From positions 372,001-436,000 of the forward strand of contig CP120455.1 in the NCBI GenBank assembly GCA_034226945.1: a DNA stretch of 64,000 bases, in the 5' to 3' direction. The notes under the pieces are model-generated. The model was not told the DNA's origin, ran no database searches, and saw nothing but the letters and a program-made list of their open reading frames with translations. The stretch's first letter is position 1. Each line of letters begins with the position of its first letter. Shown here one piece after another: positions 19,381-43,270 of the stretch. The DNA is from Picochlorum sp. SENEW3 (lineage: Eukaryota). A program made the position numbers and the translations under genes.

Positions 19381-20310
19381 TTAACTGTTATAATCGTAAT
19401 CATAATCTCTCATGTAATCTTCTTCATACCACAAATATCCAGAAGTGTACGCTATGTTTTCACACCACTTTGTTTGACCAGTGTTCTCCTCATCATATGG
19501 GTCAGGTGCCTTGGCTTTGCTCAGTAGACATCTTCGTTTTACCTGTCCATACGAAAATGCCTTGCATTTTGATTTCTCCATAGCACACACGTGGAAACAT
19601 TCCTTTGCCGAGTAGACACCTTTTACTGTCTTGTACATTTTGGCTGCTTGTTTGTAGTTTCGTTTCACATATCCCCACATTCCATTGAACAAGTTTTCAT
19701 CCCCTCGAGAATCTTCCTCACCATAAGCCGTTTTGAAACCAACCCATTTGCCTTTTGGTGGCATTTTCCCCATGGTGCAATGGCTCCCGATTTTTGCCGC
19801 GACATTATAACAGTAGTCGGATGGCAGATTTGGAAGCCAACATGTAGCCGTGTACTTGTATGCTATTGTCGCAGCAGTATACCGGTGTTTGTCTTTCTTC
19901 TTACTCTTACAAATCTTCACCTGAGGAACAGTGTCATCCTTGTATGACAAGGCACTATACAAAGTACACACCTTCTTCTTTGAATCGTACTGGAAAGAAC
20001 CACATTCCTCTGTAATGTCAAGGTCTTCGAGTGTTTCCCAATTTCCTTCACTCCTTTCAGCACATGCGGCGTAGCAGTCATAGAAAGATTTGATATTCTT
20101 CAGTTTCAGGTTGGCCTTGTTCCGAACCTGATACCCTGTGAACCCAACAATTTCAACAAGGTATACATCTTGTCCCGCCTCGATTGATACGTCGTGTGAT
20201 TTTGGACCCTTGCATTTTTTCTTCTTGGCGTCGACTCCATCATGTCGGAGGACTATGAGGATGACGACTGTTGTGAGAAGCACTGAACGACGGTACAATG
20301 AGGTAAACAT
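19381..20310 (-). CDS. Secreted protein with two PAN/Apple domains
   Basis: Signal peptide; CYAAC...CGSFQY...CTLYS and CFHVC...CKAFSY...CLLSK; intronless. Confidence 0.8.
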   Translation of the reverse strand: MFTSLYRRSVLLTTVVILIVLRHDGVDAKKKKCKGPKSHDVSIEAGQDVYLVEIVGFTGYQVRNKANLKLKNIKSFYDCYAACAERSEGNWETLEDLDITEECGSFQYDSKKKVCTLYSALSYKDDTVPQVKICKSKKKDKHRYTAATIAYKYTATCWLPNLPSDYCYNVAAKIGSHCTMGKMPPKGKWVGFKTAYGEEDSRGDENLFNGMWGYVKRNYKQAAKMYKTVKGVYSAKECFHVCAMEKSKCKAFSYGQVKRRCLLSKAKAPDPYDEENTGQTKWCENIAYTSGYLWYEEDYMRDYDYDYNS

Positions 20311-20642
20311 GCTTTCGACCAGTGGATGTGTGCGTGGCCTATCAAGCGTCGGGTTGGATTAAAAAACAATCTTTTTATGTGTTTTTTCTGAATTATGCAG
20401 TACAAGAGGCTGGCATCGACCTTCTGGTCGAAGAAGAAAAGGAACATGCATGGCGCCATATGGCGCTCTGGAAAGTGCAGATCTCCAGATCTGTTCAAAA
20501 ATACTAATTATGGCATTCAGAGGGTGCTGTTGAATTCAATCCAATCACGCCCATTATCTTCAAACAGTCGAACCGCGCATTATTATCCGATAAATTTACC
20601 TAATGAATCATATAACGACGTACCCATCATCCAAATCGATAC

Positions 20643-26633: not shown

Positions 26634-26773
26634 GCCAAAGCATTGCATGAGGCATACGGTTGTTAGAGCATGCAAGCAAGCAACCTATTCTTGATTTTTT
26701 TGTTTCAAATATTATTTTATTGCACAATATGACATAGTATCAAGTTGTAGTCCCTCTTTTCGACAAGAAAAGG

Positions 26774-27736
26774 ATGACGAGTTTTGTAATAATAACGACG
26801 AGGCCAGTCTTTTCGTTTGCTCCAAAACCCAGACATTCGTATCGCCCATGCATCTGTACACTACATGGAGAAATTAATAGAAGCAGAGCCAAGAAGAAGG
26901 GGCCACGGGAGAGACTAGAGCAACTGAGGACATTCCAAACGGAACATGGCCATGTCTCTGTTCCGTATTCTGATCCTTCTGGTCTGGGGCGGTGGATTGC
27001 TGAGCAAAGGCACAAGTATCAGAAGGGTCTTCTGGATGACGTCTTATACAGAGAGCTGATTTCACTTTGGATAGTATTGCGTCCTCTGGAAGCTCGTTGG
27101 GATGTCCGTTTCAAGCAGATTGGGGAATTTCATTCCAAGCATGGTCATTCCTTTATACAACAAAGGGACAATGTTCCTGATGGACTATATGGGTGGGTGT
27201 TACAGCAAAGACAGTTGAAAAAACAGGGTAGGCTGGATGAGTCAAGGGTGAAACGCTTGGATGCATTAGGTTTTGTTTGGGATGTTCAAGCTCATATTTG
27301 GCGACAGAATATGGAGTGTTTGAGAGAGTTTTATGAAGAGCATGGGCACTGTCGTGTTCCTACACGATGGAAGAATTCTCCGCGATTGTATTCTTTTCTG
27401 CGGAGGGTCCAGAGTAGTAGCAAAAAGGGATTTGAGGATGTGCCATATGCAACACAGGAGGATGTGAAGAAACTGCATGCTTGGGGGGCTGTAAGAAGGT
27501 ATCGTAAGTCATGGCATCAACGGTATGAAGACATGTGTCGTGTCAAAGCAGAATGTCAGAAGAGTGGGAGAATACCATACCAGTATTTGAAAGATAGCGG
27601 ATTGGCAGCATGGGCTAGGAGTCAACGGTTTGTCCACAGACAAGGGCTCCTGTCTCAAGAACAGCACAAGCTGTTGGATACTATGGGCTTTGATTGGGAG
27701 GGTTCTGACTGGTCCTGGTTGACAAACCGGTCATAA
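26774..27736 (+). CDS. Helicase-associated (HA) domain repeat protein, probably organelle-targeted
   Basis: About four repeats of F..EHGH..VP...L..W...QR...L...L..LGF.W; no helicase core. Confidence 0.88.
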   Translation: MTSFVIITTRPVFSFAPKPRHSYRPCICTLHGEINRSRAKKKGPRERLEQLRTFQTEHGHVSVPYSDPSGLGRWIAEQRHKYQKGLLDDVLYRELISLWIVLRPLEARWDVRFKQIGEFHSKHGHSFIQQRDNVPDGLYGWVLQQRQLKKQGRLDESRVKRLDALGFVWDVQAHIWRQNMECLREFYEEHGHCRVPTRWKNSPRLYSFLRRVQSSSKKGFEDVPYATQEDVKKLHAWGAVRRYRKSWHQRYEDMCRVKAECQKSGRIPYQYLKDSGLAAWARSQRFVHRQGLLSQEQHKLLDTMGFDWEGSDWSWLTNRS

Positions 27737-38304: not shown

Positions 38305-38930
38305 ATGTTTTATACGCTTGATTTATCAAAAGAATTAGAGATTCATCCTCGATTCTTAGGACCAAAGCTCAAGGATGAAATTTATGATAGGCTGCGGCAA
38401 GAAGTAGAGGGGTACTGCACTGGCAAGCACGGTTTCGTCTTGGCAGTGACGAGTTTGTTCTCGATTGGACAGGGATTGATCAGAGAAGGAGCAGGATATG
38501 CTAGATTTAATGTTCAGTACCGATGCATCACGTTCATGCCCCATAAGGGGGAAGTGCTGGATGCAACTGTAAAGTCTGTGAACAAGGTGTGTGTTGTTTT
38601 TCATTTTTGTGACACCAAGGCGGTGTTGAAAGAATACGCTGGGATTGATCCATCGTGACAATTGGTTGTTTTAATGATGTATCTCTGCAGATGGGTTTTT
38701 TCGCAGAGGCTGGTCCTTTGCAGTTGTTTGTCAGCAACCATCTTATTCCAGAGGAATTTGAATTTGATACGTCACATGAACCTGCGTATGTGACGAGTGA
38801 AGGAGACAAAATTATTTCTGGGAGTGAAGTAAGGGTTCGCATTGTGGGTACTCGTGTGGATGCAAATGAGATTTTTGCCGTTGCAACTATGAGTGATGAC
38901 TTTTTGGGGTTGATGAGCATATCAACATGA
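38305..38930 (+). CDS. RPB7: RNA polymerase II subunit RPB7
   Basis: HPRFLGP, VEGYCTGKHG, GEVLDA.V, MGFFAEAGPL, VRVRIVGTR; intron 38587-38690. Confidence 0.97.
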
Positions 38931-39507
38931 TGATTGTAGTACTGAATGCACCGGGTGTTGATGTGAGATACATACATCTCGACCATTGATTGGCAATTTC
39001 TTGTGTGTATACAAGAGTGAGATGCTAGCGTAAAAAACATATAGGGTGCATGGTAGTAGTTTGTGTATGTATGGAGAACCCTCTGGAGCCAAGGCTTCAA
39101 AGGAAAAGAACCTTCTCATGGGGGATAATCATCCGCTTTAGTATTCTATTCAAATGGTATTTATGACAATCCAGTTTGTAAAAACTGTCCATCAAGGTGT
39201 CGAAGTAGTATGCATCTCCAGCGAGTATTTTTACACAGTCTGTGGCATTGCCTTTCAGCCATATGCTGGCTTATAAGCCACAATTATGCCATGCGAGCAA
39301 GGGGGGAATAGTGATCTGCCTGCCCGAGTGTGGTAGATTGACGGGGATATATGATGCTATTCCACGATCGCGTCCATTTTATCTTTATAAGTACTGATAT
39401 TTTGGGGTTCGACAGTGAAAAGACCGAGAAGATTCAAAGGTCGCTTGGGCATTGAAGAATTCGACACCAGCGGTGTGATCTGCTCCCGAGACTCGAAAGC
39501 TTCCCAA

Positions 39508-41541
39508 ATGACCATGGTATGTTTATGGAGACTAGTTCAAGAGATTTTGAATGATACTATAGTACCTTAGATCATCGTGCATTATTTATCAGAGGTTTGT
39601 TGTATTGATCGGGGACTCGTTTCTGCAGCGACTGCCAAGGCAGCTTCTTGTGGGGCTCTTGTTGGGATTTCTGTGGTGCCGCCATGTGCGGGCGTACGAA
39701 GGGGAGGACTATAACCTTGATTATCTCGAGGAGTTTTCGTCCGAAGAGCTGCAGGTGCGTGAATTCCTACAATCGTTCTAGTTGGGGACACCAAGGAATG
39801 CTTCTTCCCCCCTCCCTCAATGTGTGTGTTGATACCGTGTGTGTTCCTTCTTTTATTCAGGCGCCTTCAAGAATGGGCGATACCCGATTATCAGCTGTAG
39901 AGTCCAAATATAGAGTACGGAAGGGTATTAAAATCAATCCAGAGCCTGGTGCATGGATGGTTTTTGAAAACTCCAGCAGGAAGGTAAAGAATGGAGTCAA
40001 CACACGGTTGCATCTGCTGGAACGATGGACTGGGTCGATCCGCTTGAATTATCGTTTCAAATTTTCTTCCAATTTTGAATGGGCCTCTGGTGGTATCCTC
40101 CCTGGGATCCTGGGAGGCAGGTGGTGGTGCACTCCAAATCACAGGAGTTCCCAGTGCTGGAGAGTACAGCTTGGCTGGAATGAACGGGGCGAAGCAGACA
40201 TTGTCAGCCGTATTCCTCAGGCAAAGTCAGATATTTCAAAAATTAGTACTCTTAAATTCCAAAAATCTGCGTGGAATCGTGTGTCAATCGTTGTTCGAGT
40301 GAATACAGGGAGATCCAGTAATGGAGAGGTGGAAATATCTGTGAATGACAAGGTGCTTGCTCTGGAGAGTGGTATCCTTTTCAGTGCTGACAAGACTCGA
40401 AGCGTCTACTTGATGCTGAGTGGAAAGTATCTGAATAAACAAACCATACCAAAGAGCTCTGAGCCTGGAGAAATGATGTACATTTTGGGAAAGGACTATG
40501 AGGTGCAACAGGTGAAGAAAATCCCACCACCACCACCTCCTTCTCCTCCTCCTCCTTCTCCTCCGCCTCCACCACCACCTTCTCCACCACCTCCAATGAT
40601 TATTCCATCACCATCTCCAGTCCCTGCGGAACCAATACCACAACCCATTCCTGATCTCCCATCTGTTCCAACACCAACAGGGCCATACCAATGGCAGGAT
40701 ATGACTCCAGACCAGTATAGAAGGGCACTGATGCTGACATCTATCTTTGAGAATGCAAAGTTAGAACTTCAGTATGGTTTCTGCAAAAACATCAATGATG
40801 GTCGGGGATTCACGTTTGGATTCTGTGGTTTTGTCACAAAGCATGCTGATGGACGACAGGTCATCCAAGAGTACTTGAAGATGCGGCCAGACGATGTCAT
40901 TATGGCAAACTACTTGGAGATTATGAGGCAACCATCACCTGGTAACGACGGCACAAGTCAACTTGTTGGATTCTGTGAAGCTGTTGAAGCTCTTGGAGAT
41001 GATGAAGCATTCAGAAAGGCCCAGGATATAATACAGCAGAGACGGTATTATGAGCCCTCAAGGGTATGGGGCCAGAGGATTGGGGCTCGTTATGGGCTTA
41101 CCAAGGGACAGATATACGATGCTATGATCAACCATGGTCAGGGAAGACAAGATCCATTCTCCATCGACCACATAGTGGAGAAGACAGCACAACAAATGGG
41201 TGGATACCCATTGGATGGAGTTGACGAAATGCAATGGCTCGCCAAGTTTTTAGAAATAAGAGACGTGACGATCAAAGGCGATGGTGATATTTACACCAGA
41301 CGAATTGAATTCTACAAAGCTCTCTTGGACGCTGGGAACTATAACCTTGATGGTGCGTGTCACTGACCAGCTGCTTTAAATTCCCTTCATGTTCATGTGT
41401 CTGATACATTATTCTGTTCTTTGCTCTGCAGGGCCTATATACATTACTACAGAAAAGAGAGGCAATGGGTACACAATCACCAACGTGTACTATGGAAGAT
41501 TTGAAATTTACAGCCTGAAAGAATATAGCATAATTGAATAA
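39508..41541 (+). CDS. Secreted PL14-lyase-like domain + Pro-rich linker + GH46 chitosanase
   Basis: Exons 39508-39516, 39629-39754 (signal peptide), 39861-41352 and 41432-41541 join in frame. FEWASGGILPGILGG (PL14-like); SPPPP repeats; SIFEN...QYG...DGRGFTFG..GF and YDAMINHG (GH46). Confidence 0.88.
40524..40682 (+). repeat. Extensin-like Ser-Pro(n) low-complexity linker
   Basis: PPPPPPSPPPPSPPPPPPPSPPPP encoded by CCA/CCT runs. Confidence 0.9.
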
Positions 41542-41676
41542 AACTGTTCAAGGTAATATCGTTGTTCACCATTACCTTGGCTACAGCACGACAAAATTGT
41601 TCTGAACTCGTATTTACATTCTCTTTGTCCCTGAATTCACTCTTTTTTTCTAAAGACGACACTGTAATACATCACA

Positions 41677-43270
41677 TTATTTGACCTTTTTATCAACGTC
41701 TGTTGCTTCTAACCAGGCTACGTGTCTCTCATCCACATTGTTCACTGCCTTCCACACAGCACTGTTGCACTTGAATCCAGACCCAAAAGCAATCTGCCAC
41801 ACCCTTTCTCCCTTCTTGACACCCTTTTTCGTCTCTATATTCGACAGCACGTACCAAATAGACGAGGAAGAGATGTTTCCATACCTATATAATGTTTCTC
41901 TGGATGGACCGACCATATCATGTGTCAATTCCAACTGCTTTTCTATCGCATCAATGACTCCACGCCCACCAGTATGAATGCAGAAGTGCTCGAATGCAAG
42001 TTTAAAGTCAGGAATGTAGGGCTTAACTTTCATCGACAACACTTTGCGTGCGACTAAATTGACGAAGAATAAGAGCTGCTCTGACAATGGAAGTGTCAGA
42101 GGACCAAGCGTGGTAATATTTGCCTTCAACGCATGCCCCGCGATTTTCATCAAATCTTTCGACAAAAACACACCTGTCTCTTTATTTGAATCCTGCTTTT
42201 GATACACACACTCATAATGTGCATCATCTTGCCCCATATGCGTCCTGACAACATGCATCAGCTGATACTTGGCCCTCTTCTTGTGCCTCCGTCTATTGGA
42301 AAGCACAATGGCAGCACCTCCAACCCTAAACAGACAATTCGGTATCAGCATTGATTTCTCGTTACCAAAGTACCAATTTTGTGTGATATTCTCCGTCGAC
42401 ACCACGAGTGCTGTCGAATTAGGGTACACCTGCAACAGTTGCTCTGCCAAACCAATTGAAATCACTCCAGCGGAACACCCCATTCCAGCAAGATTGTATG
42501 TGATCACATTCGACCTCATCTTGAATTTATTCACAATCATAGCAGACAGAGAAGGCGTGGGATTGAACAAGGAGCAATTTACAATCAAAATATCCACCTT
42601 TTGAGGCTTGATGCCCGTCTTTGCAAGAGTCTCTTCAACACATGTAAACAACACTTCCCGCGCCTCGTCTCGTGCAGCTTCCATGGACGCATCCACCGGA
42701 TCAGACATGATTCCCTCTGGTATATACGTTTCATCACCCAAACCTCCTCGATGAAGCACCTTCTCTTGGAACGTTACAGACTCTTCGGTAAACACACCCT
42801 GCTGCTCCTTCTTCTTGGTCATTTCCATGAACAATTCCTTTGATAGTTTCAAATGGGGCTGCCCCTTATAGCAATGATACCCCAAAAGATACACAGGAGG
42901 CGATCGCTTGGCAAAGTACGTCGCGATGATACTCACAAGCAACAGACAACTCAAGATGAAAACCAGCAAACTGACAGTCACTTCAGTCTCCCGTGCAGTA
43001 AACCAAAGCCTCTCCAGATCACCATTGTGATACATAGATGTCAATTCCAACTACAAAGATCGATATAGACCCGTCAACGCCCTGATCAGGGTACATCAAA
43101 GAGAATGAAAACGTACAAATCCCATGGCAGCAAAAGGCGCCAACGTCAGCACAAGAGCATGGCGTACCAACAAATGATACCCTGCGCGATAGAATTGAAA
43201 ACTATACGTTTAAGAAGACAGATATATCCCATCGTCACGCTGTATAGATCGCTCATACCTCGTTTGACAT
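41677..43270 (-). CDS. KCS: 3-ketoacyl-CoA synthase (FAE1-type very-long-chain fatty acid elongase)
   Basis: NLAGMGCSAG, HFCIHTGGR, YGNISSSS, QIAFGSGFKCNS; two short 5' exons (MSNE; FQFYRAGYHLL...). Confidence 0.96.

Follow-up and report, generated by a model that had tools for sequence, protein, structure and literature searches.

The locus at positions 39508–41541 of the analyzed window, a 64,000-nt stretch of the Picochlorum sp. SENEW3 genome, is a real, expressed, and conserved gene, in which a PL14-fold beta-jelly-roll module without a lyase active site is joined through a Pro/Ser-rich linker to a GH46 chitosanase domain. The product is probably a secreted wall-remodelling chitosanase with a polyanion-binding, PL14-derived pseudo-lyase anchor, descended from one old and vertically inherited fusion; moderate confidence was assigned to this reading as a whole. 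All features described below lie on the plus strand unless indicated otherwise.

Gene structure and transcripts of the fusion locus

The gene comprises four exons separated by GT..AG introns, with the start codon at 39508 and the stop codon ending at 41541. Its product is open over 578 or 590 aa, depending on the acceptor of intron 1. Exon 1 (39508–39516) holds three codons, including the start codon, before a GT donor at 39517; a Met codon directly before the GT donor was also found in the related loci L018, L019, and L020. Intron 1 (39517–39628) has its preferred acceptor at 39628 and an alternative, in-frame acceptor at 39592, which adds 12 aa; both leave the frame open, with exon 2 starting at 39629 or 39593, respectively. 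The acceptor at 39628 is more likely, since it is used by the gene model P0025, is conserved in L020, and agrees with P0057 and P0083, relatives whose spliced N-termini join the start Met to the residue equivalent to this junction. Exon 2 (39629–39754) encodes the hydrophobic core of a putative signal peptide, extending to about 39694, and then a short acidic stretch (eight Asp/Glu and no Lys/Arg among the 22 residues counted). A Kyte-Doolittle 11-mer peak of 2.3–2.55 and the similar N-termini of relatives support the signal peptide proposed in an earlier note on this DNA, and the fusion protein looks secreted judging from its sequence. Intron 2 (39755–39860; 106 bases) and intron 3 (41353–41431; 79 bases) were skipped in contigs of run X3. 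Exon 3 (39861–41352) lies between these two introns, and exon 4 (41432–41541) encodes a C-terminal extension of the GH46 domain common to the algal-type clade. The transcript P0274 is without the equivalent of intron 2 that the locus L016 carries.

The splice evidence was obtained by comparing the contigs of four sequencing runs, and the joints of introns 2 and 3 were found in one of the four, X3. This run is RNA-like, no run found being on record as RNA. Run X1 looks like DNA, runs X7 and X10 have no cover over the coding body, and none of these three bears on expression. No spliced contig across intron 1 was detected in the compared runs, and no X3 contig spans the linker in the window's own organism. 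In relatives, both domains occur in one ORF in P0274 (598 aa, from a 1,984-base contig) and in P0083, both of which prove to be spliced when set against L016 and L018. A transcriptome ORF of 599 aa, P0057, is likewise complete and has both domains. The presence of the PL14-fold and GH46 domains on one transcript, a point the earlier note had set down for checking, is thus supported by the ORFs of relatives and by the splicing of introns 2 and 3 in X3.

From exon 2 onward, the product is identical to the NCBI protein WPT14072.1 (P0023) of Picochlorum sp. SENEW3, and a protein of Picochlorum sp. BPE23 agrees with it at 559 of 575 residues. The open four-exon product, this letter-for-letter match, and the presence of the motifs quoted earlier confirmed the prediction of a spliced multi-domain gene. 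The locus sits among ordinary nuclear housekeeping genes with a GC content of 43–45%, the same as in the rest of the window, and no second copy of the fusion gene was found within the 64,000 nt. The gene order PPR, RPB7, fusion gene, ketoacyl-CoA synthase, and ataxin-2 is shared with L016, L018, L019, and L020 (43–60% GC). A spliced X3 contig over positions 41432–41754 extends past the stop (41677) of the convergent ketoacyl-CoA synthase gene; the 3' ends of the two genes possibly overlap, the contigs carrying no strand. Elsewhere in the window, an ORF at 26738–27736 encodes four helicase-associated repeats (HA, PF03457) and has no other Pfam match.

The upstream neighbor RPB7 (38305–38930; identified by Pfam) is a separate gene. 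Three independent public Picochlorum models (P0017, P0023, and P0045, the last named RPB7 with 740 aa) merge it with the fusion gene. The RPB7 frame, however, closes with a separate stop at 38930, and the X3 contigs show a poly(A) loose end at 39195; these models were therefore interpreted as annotation merges, and an RPB7-chitosanase fusion protein was rejected. As a warning for annotation, the three models hide the chitosanase protein under the name RPB7.

The chitosanase domain and the PL14-fold module

The GH46 domain (40680–41352) matched Pfam PF01374 over model positions 2–206 of 210 (E = 8e-42, 143.7 bits, above the curated cut-off); among solved structures, its best match was the chitosanase of PDB entry 7C6C (E = 1e-42). 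According to the residue roles in Table 1 of PMC4663542, its key residues are the acid Glu (40749), the base Asp (40797), Arg (40803), Thr (40812), and a subsite Asp (40848), with the Asp/Arg/Arg network encoded at 41118, 41259, and 41301. The catalytic Glu and Asp, the helper Arg, the water-orienting Thr, and the Asp-Arg-Arg network are kept in all 26 algal-type GH46 domains, and the equivalent of the subsite residue Asp57 in 25 of them; two Cys are invariant (26/26). The GH46 domain with both catalytic acids described earlier was therefore upheld, and it is most likely an active inverting endo-chitosanase. By eye, no clearly conserved counterpart of the Streptomyces −1 subsite Glu197 was seen in the algal-type alignment, and the enzyme may accordingly act on something other than plain chitosan. 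With 7C6C and CsnN174 of Streptomyces N174 (1CHK), the domain shares its fold family and the complete set of catalytic and network residues, whereas the algal protein is eukaryotic and intron-containing and adds the two Cys, the C-terminal extension, and the N-terminal PL14-fold module.

The linker (40524–40685) consists of 54 aa, 33 of which are Pro. A Pro/Ser-rich linker is thus present as stated in the earlier note, but its label "extensin" was generous: three Ser-Pro(n) motifs occur in the 54 aa, compared with the extensin/HRGP pattern, in which repeated Ser-Pro(3-5) forms the main domain.

The N-terminal module (39906–40520) matched Pfam PF21294 (PL14) with an E-value of 6.8e-19, above the curated cut-off. 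Its AlphaFold2 model, built on 72 sequences (pLDDT 93, pTM 0.88), matched 5GMT in Foldseek (E = 3.7e-11). Structural comparison gave Z 19.8 with an rmsd of 2.5 over 193 residues for AkAly30, the Aplysia alginate lyase (5GMT), Z 18.5 for vAL-1 (3GNE), and Z 18.4 for the PL36 lyase Aly36B. The six best structural matches were PL14/PL36 lyases (Z 18.2–19.8), and the next family was GH16 (Z 13.2). In the Atlas, the domain led to PL14-type clusters only, and the full protein to low scores only (0.78). HMMER and structure prediction on the spliced protein, as recommended earlier, confirmed both domain calls, including the predicted PL14 jelly roll. This fold (Z 18–20, rmsd 2.5–3.0, about 190 residues) is common to AkAly30, vAL-1, Aly36B, and the algal module, as is the GGxLPG strand, and the Cys115-Cys124 loop pair of AkAly30 is shared as well. 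In contrast to these lyases, the algal module has neither the active-site Lys, Arg, Tyr, and Tyr nor the FFGG motif, which is also replaced, and its identity to them is 14–18%.

Four alignment columns were scored (Lys in GGKLPG, Arg in SxRxM, and both Tyr in YxY), which we take to be the active site Lys99/Arg128/Tyr140/Tyr142 of AkAly30 and its counterpart in vAL-1. In the window, these residues are replaced by Ile (40095), Gln (40167), Val (40203), and Arg (40209), and the Cys pair (40128 and 40155) is kept. The change of GGKLPG to GGILPG reported in the earlier note is real, but the loss was understated there, as the Arg and both Tyr are also gone. None of the four residues is kept in 26 of the 29 algal-type sequences and one is kept in three (Lys in P0013, Arg in P0018 and P0019); neither Tyr occurs in any of the 29. 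All four were found in 111 of the 135 other matches of the library search, among which the columns are 84–99% conserved, and in 7/7 chlorovirus-type PL14 domains. Within the algal-type sequences, Gln stands at the Arg site in 27/29, Trp100 is present in 29/29, and the Cys pair in 27/29. The column assignment agrees with the Cys115, Gly118, and Cys124 numbering and with the Tyr/Tyr mechanism given in PMC8618178, where Tyr is both acid and base in PL14 lyases. The module would thus be unable to perform beta-elimination by the known chemistry of the family and is probably dead as a lyase, which agrees with the loss of activity suggested earlier. PL14 counts in these algae can therefore be pseudo-enzymes. 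Eight of the 135 matches that are not of the algal type (P0099, P0100, P0128, P0147, P0158, P0199, P0218, and P0234) also keep at most one residue of the quartet, and PL14 modules may therefore have been disarmed repeatedly.

The same dead module was found with other partners. It occurs with PAN (P0108), with PAN and a PF11790 hydrolase (P0109), and in front of a conserved, Cys-containing C-terminal domain of about 130 aa without a Pfam match (P0021, P0090, P0091, and P0096), which in P0091 we take by eye to be phytocyanin-like. A low-confidence model (pLDDT 59) built for the partner-domain question gave structural matches to the N-terminal domain only. PAN is a partner of the module in P0019 as well as in P0108 and P0109, and an ORF with two PAN domains lies at 19381–20358 (minus strand) of the window. 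The module thus appears as a discrete non-catalytic domain appended to CAZymes (GH46, the PF11790 hydrolase, and others), as carbohydrate-binding modules are defined. Such re-use is the usual pattern for binding modules, and the module is best described as a lyase-derived, predicted binding module, which makes it a clear example of the probable conversion of an enzyme to a binding role.

In the 13 Picochlorum-clade modules measured, the net charge ranged from +9 to +25, whereas the median of 38 canonical domains was +1. A net negative charge (−4 to −9) was obtained for four distant copies (P0019, P0104, P0108, and P0109), and polyanion binding may thus be restricted to part of the family. Active chlorovirus-type lyases are also basic (+2 to +14), and charge therefore fails to separate binding from catalysis.

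Proposed role and alternative readings

In the favored reading, the GH46 domain, the catalytic residues of which are observed, would cut chitosan as an inverting endo-chitosanase, and the groove of the N-terminal module would most likely bind a polyuronate or another acidic polysaccharide of the wall. Through the stiff and probably glycosylated Pro-rich spacer, the module would tether the chitosanase to places where a glucosamine polymer is complexed with a polyanion. The likeliest use would be the loosening of the alga's own wall during growth or daughter-cell release. Chlorella walls are reported to contain 7–15% glucosamine together with uronic acids (PMC9614988), and Picochlorum has a chitin synthase (PMC5122149); the literature searched, partly represented by excerpts, gave no direct report of chitosan in the Picochlorum wall. 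The fusion protein most likely works, by analogy, like chitosanases anchored by CBM32. The GH8 chitosanase with CBM32 of Paenibacillus sp. IK-5 and CBM32-bearing GH46 enzymes share with it the combination of a chitosanase and a wall-anchoring non-catalytic beta-sandwich (PMC4663542), whereas the algal module descends from a lyase and its predicted ligand is a polyanion, not chitosan. The GH46 partner domains named in the available part of this 2015 review are CBM32, a peptidoglycan-binding domain, and a chlorovirus-specific domain, with PL14 absent (PMC4663542).

Secreted glycoside hydrolases of modular build that carry binding modules are already known. A full-text literature search, with most subscription papers outside it, returned no paper on a PL14-GH46 fusion or on a non-catalytic algal PL14 module, and the pairing of a disarmed PL14 binding module with a eukaryotic GH46 domain appears to be undescribed. 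The Chlorella variabilis genome paper reportedly includes chitosanase genes. In the literature reached, the enzymes opening the glucosamine walls of Chlorella-type algae are not established, and the fusion gene is a concrete and conserved candidate for this step. It might also be of use in the gentle lysis or protoplasting of industrial Picochlorum.

A broader proposal is more tentative, and we put it at somewhat below an even chance. It holds that the module represents a new carbohydrate-binding-module family derived from a PL14 lyase, which would have lost its active site completely in the ancestor of a group of glucosamine-walled green algae and have been shuffled onto a chitosanase, a PF11790 hydrolase, PAN, and another domain as a wall address tag. 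The fusion protein would then be the opener of the alga's mother wall. For the lysis of walls, chloroviruses are equipped with a PL14 lyase as well as a chitosanase (PMC5408694, PMC7019647, PMC8145301, and PMC3602175), and, if the proposal is true, the fusion protein would be the host counterpart of this kit.

Both enzyme families also meet in a 1,406 aa ORF (L023:379–4596, plus strand) on a giant-virus-like contig with 32% GC, which contains, in this order, a GH18 chitinase, another chitinase-like block, CBM5/12, GH46, and a PL14 domain with its catalytic residues intact, joined by Pro-Thr linkers. It is an independent GH46 and PL14 fusion with a domain order opposite to the algal one, which suggests that both substrates lie together in target walls. 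Such a pairing would suit attack on foreign walls as well, and an outward-aimed enzyme for defense or foraging, acting on the walls of fungal parasites or competitors with chitosan beside glucuronic-acid polymers, is the main alternative for the biological role. The walls of Mucoromycota are described as chitin/chitosan with mucorans containing glucuronic acid (PMC12223506), and the apparent secretion of the protein is in line with this use. However, tabulated GH46 genes center on Chlorella-type algae with glucosamine walls of their own (PMC11126685, rows listed), and the syntenic place of the gene amid housekeeping genes is constant across genomes of 43–60% GC, with no sign of defense-gene turnover at the locus. 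We regard this use as unlikely.

The retention of enzymatic activity by the N-terminal module, through a rebuilt site (for instance the conserved Gln, a Tyr near the C-terminal strand, and Arg/Lys/His in the groove) with a substrate other than alginate, is distinctly unlikely. Conservation of Gln103 in 27/29 and Tyr190 in 26/29 algal-type sequences is compatible with it, as is the Gly-x-Tyr ending of the module, which presumably resembles the catalytic strand of PL7. The same fold has switched its catalyst to Lys in the PL36 lyase Aly36B (PMC8618178). Most groove positions of the algal module (79, 101, 115, 117, 187, and 189), however, vary freely among relatives, unlike a catalytic center.

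A module without any sugar ligand, serving as a structural or protein-binding spacer or persisting as a decaying relic needed for folding and secretion, would agree with the most conserved positions being core Gly, Trp, Pro, and Cys residues. It would also agree with the close pair L018/L019, in which 15 non-synonymous and 5 synonymous codon differences were counted in the module (dN/dS about 1, against 0.16 for GH46), pointing to relaxed or positive selection in this pair. The dN/dS of the module was low in the two other comparisons, at about 0.125 for L020 and about 0.16 for L016, where dS is saturated and GH46 gave 0.11; the row for GH46 1–138 against L020 was left out, as contig matching stops after residue 72. 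In addition, none of the full-length orthologues seen has lost the module, and it recurs with three or more further partner domains. It thus seems to be mostly under purifying selection and not simply decaying, and the absence of a ligand is very unlikely. As for the suggestion in the earlier note of a polyuronate-binding module targeting the chitosanase, the catalytic loss, purifying selection, and re-use speak for it, and the binding itself is predicted.

Distribution and origin of the fusion

The first protein search yielded 21 proteins, 16 of them with both Pfam domains, and later searches added carriers. The distant carriers P0015, P0016, P0018, P0019, P0093, P0104, and P0130 are inferred to be algal from their signal peptides, Ser-Pro linkers, and tree positions. 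In the GH46 tree, including 71 of 78 rows (L001, L017–L019, L033, L045, and L060 were left out as duplicates, partial, or carrying a long insert), 26 algal-type rows formed one clade (100/97). The nearest branches were cellular sequences in unsettled order, and the chlorovirus-type rows lay on a long separate branch. Of the 29 algal-type rows, 23 entered the PL14 tree, together with 8 viral rows and the 38 other matches of highest similarity; these 23 formed a single clade (100/99), separate from that of the chlorovirus-type domains, a grouping to which shared active-site loss could add. Both trees were built under LG+G4, with no mixture model and no outgroup, so no donor is named. Their inner orders broadly agree, which fits one old fusion followed by vertical descent.

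Both domains probably go back to an ancient bacterial source. Assembled from bacterial-type parts, the fusion would have arisen once, long ago, and have been inherited vertically in Picochlorum-type algae and more distant relatives. Horizontal acquisition, raised in the earlier note, is thus plausible as an ancient bacterial event and not as a recent one private to this lineage. That note had also asked whether the architecture is widespread and vertically inherited in chlorophytes: descent appears vertical in Picochlorum-type algae, but the gene is not widespread, GH46 occurring in 9 of 141 chlorophyte datasets among the rows listed in supplement 3 of PMC11126685 (two Chlorella, Micractinium, Neochloris oleoabundans, Pseudochlorella, and four Trebouxia). 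GH46 proteins of green algae are therefore on record, and in several of them the domain lies at the C-terminal end of proteins of 483–655 aa; the rows listed give no N-terminal domain call, the comparison being one of table rows (PMC11126685). Picochlorum RCC4223 is scored in this CAZyme table with no GH46 and six PL14, and the method behind it may consequently miss the fusion protein.

The protein is highly improbable as a host-domesticated chlorovirus wall-lysis pair (vAL-1 and vChta-1) fused in the host: although chloroviruses carry both families (PMC5408694) and a clade of algal GH46 with the whole wider cluster-C-like branch, which includes two high-GC non-chlorovirus rows, was not rejected (AU p = 0.31), a clade of algal and chlorovirus-type GH46 was (AU p = 2.4e-7), GH46 identity is 22–28% to the chlorovirus-type domains against 35–40% to the closest cellular (bacterial-type) chitosanases, and the seven chlorovirus-type PL14 domains form their own clade (99/95) inside the canonical lyases. 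The chlorovirus link drawn in the earlier note is thus largely refuted by the separate domain phylogenies that it had called for, each algal clade being distinct from the chlorovirus homologues.

Viral scans, run once with the single domain and once with alignment A2, gave no confirmed relatives. A first motif scan gave nine loci, without chlorovirus-type genes, which were recovered by a second motif scan. Further eukaryotic GH46 sequences outside the algal clade were found in the mite Oppia nitens (P0246) and in Coemansia fungi (P0247–P0249). A viral ORF related to that of L023 (L024:1–4377, plus strand; at least 1,459 aa) combines GH18, two tandem GH46 domains, and another C-terminal domain without a Pfam call, which we take to be PL7-like.
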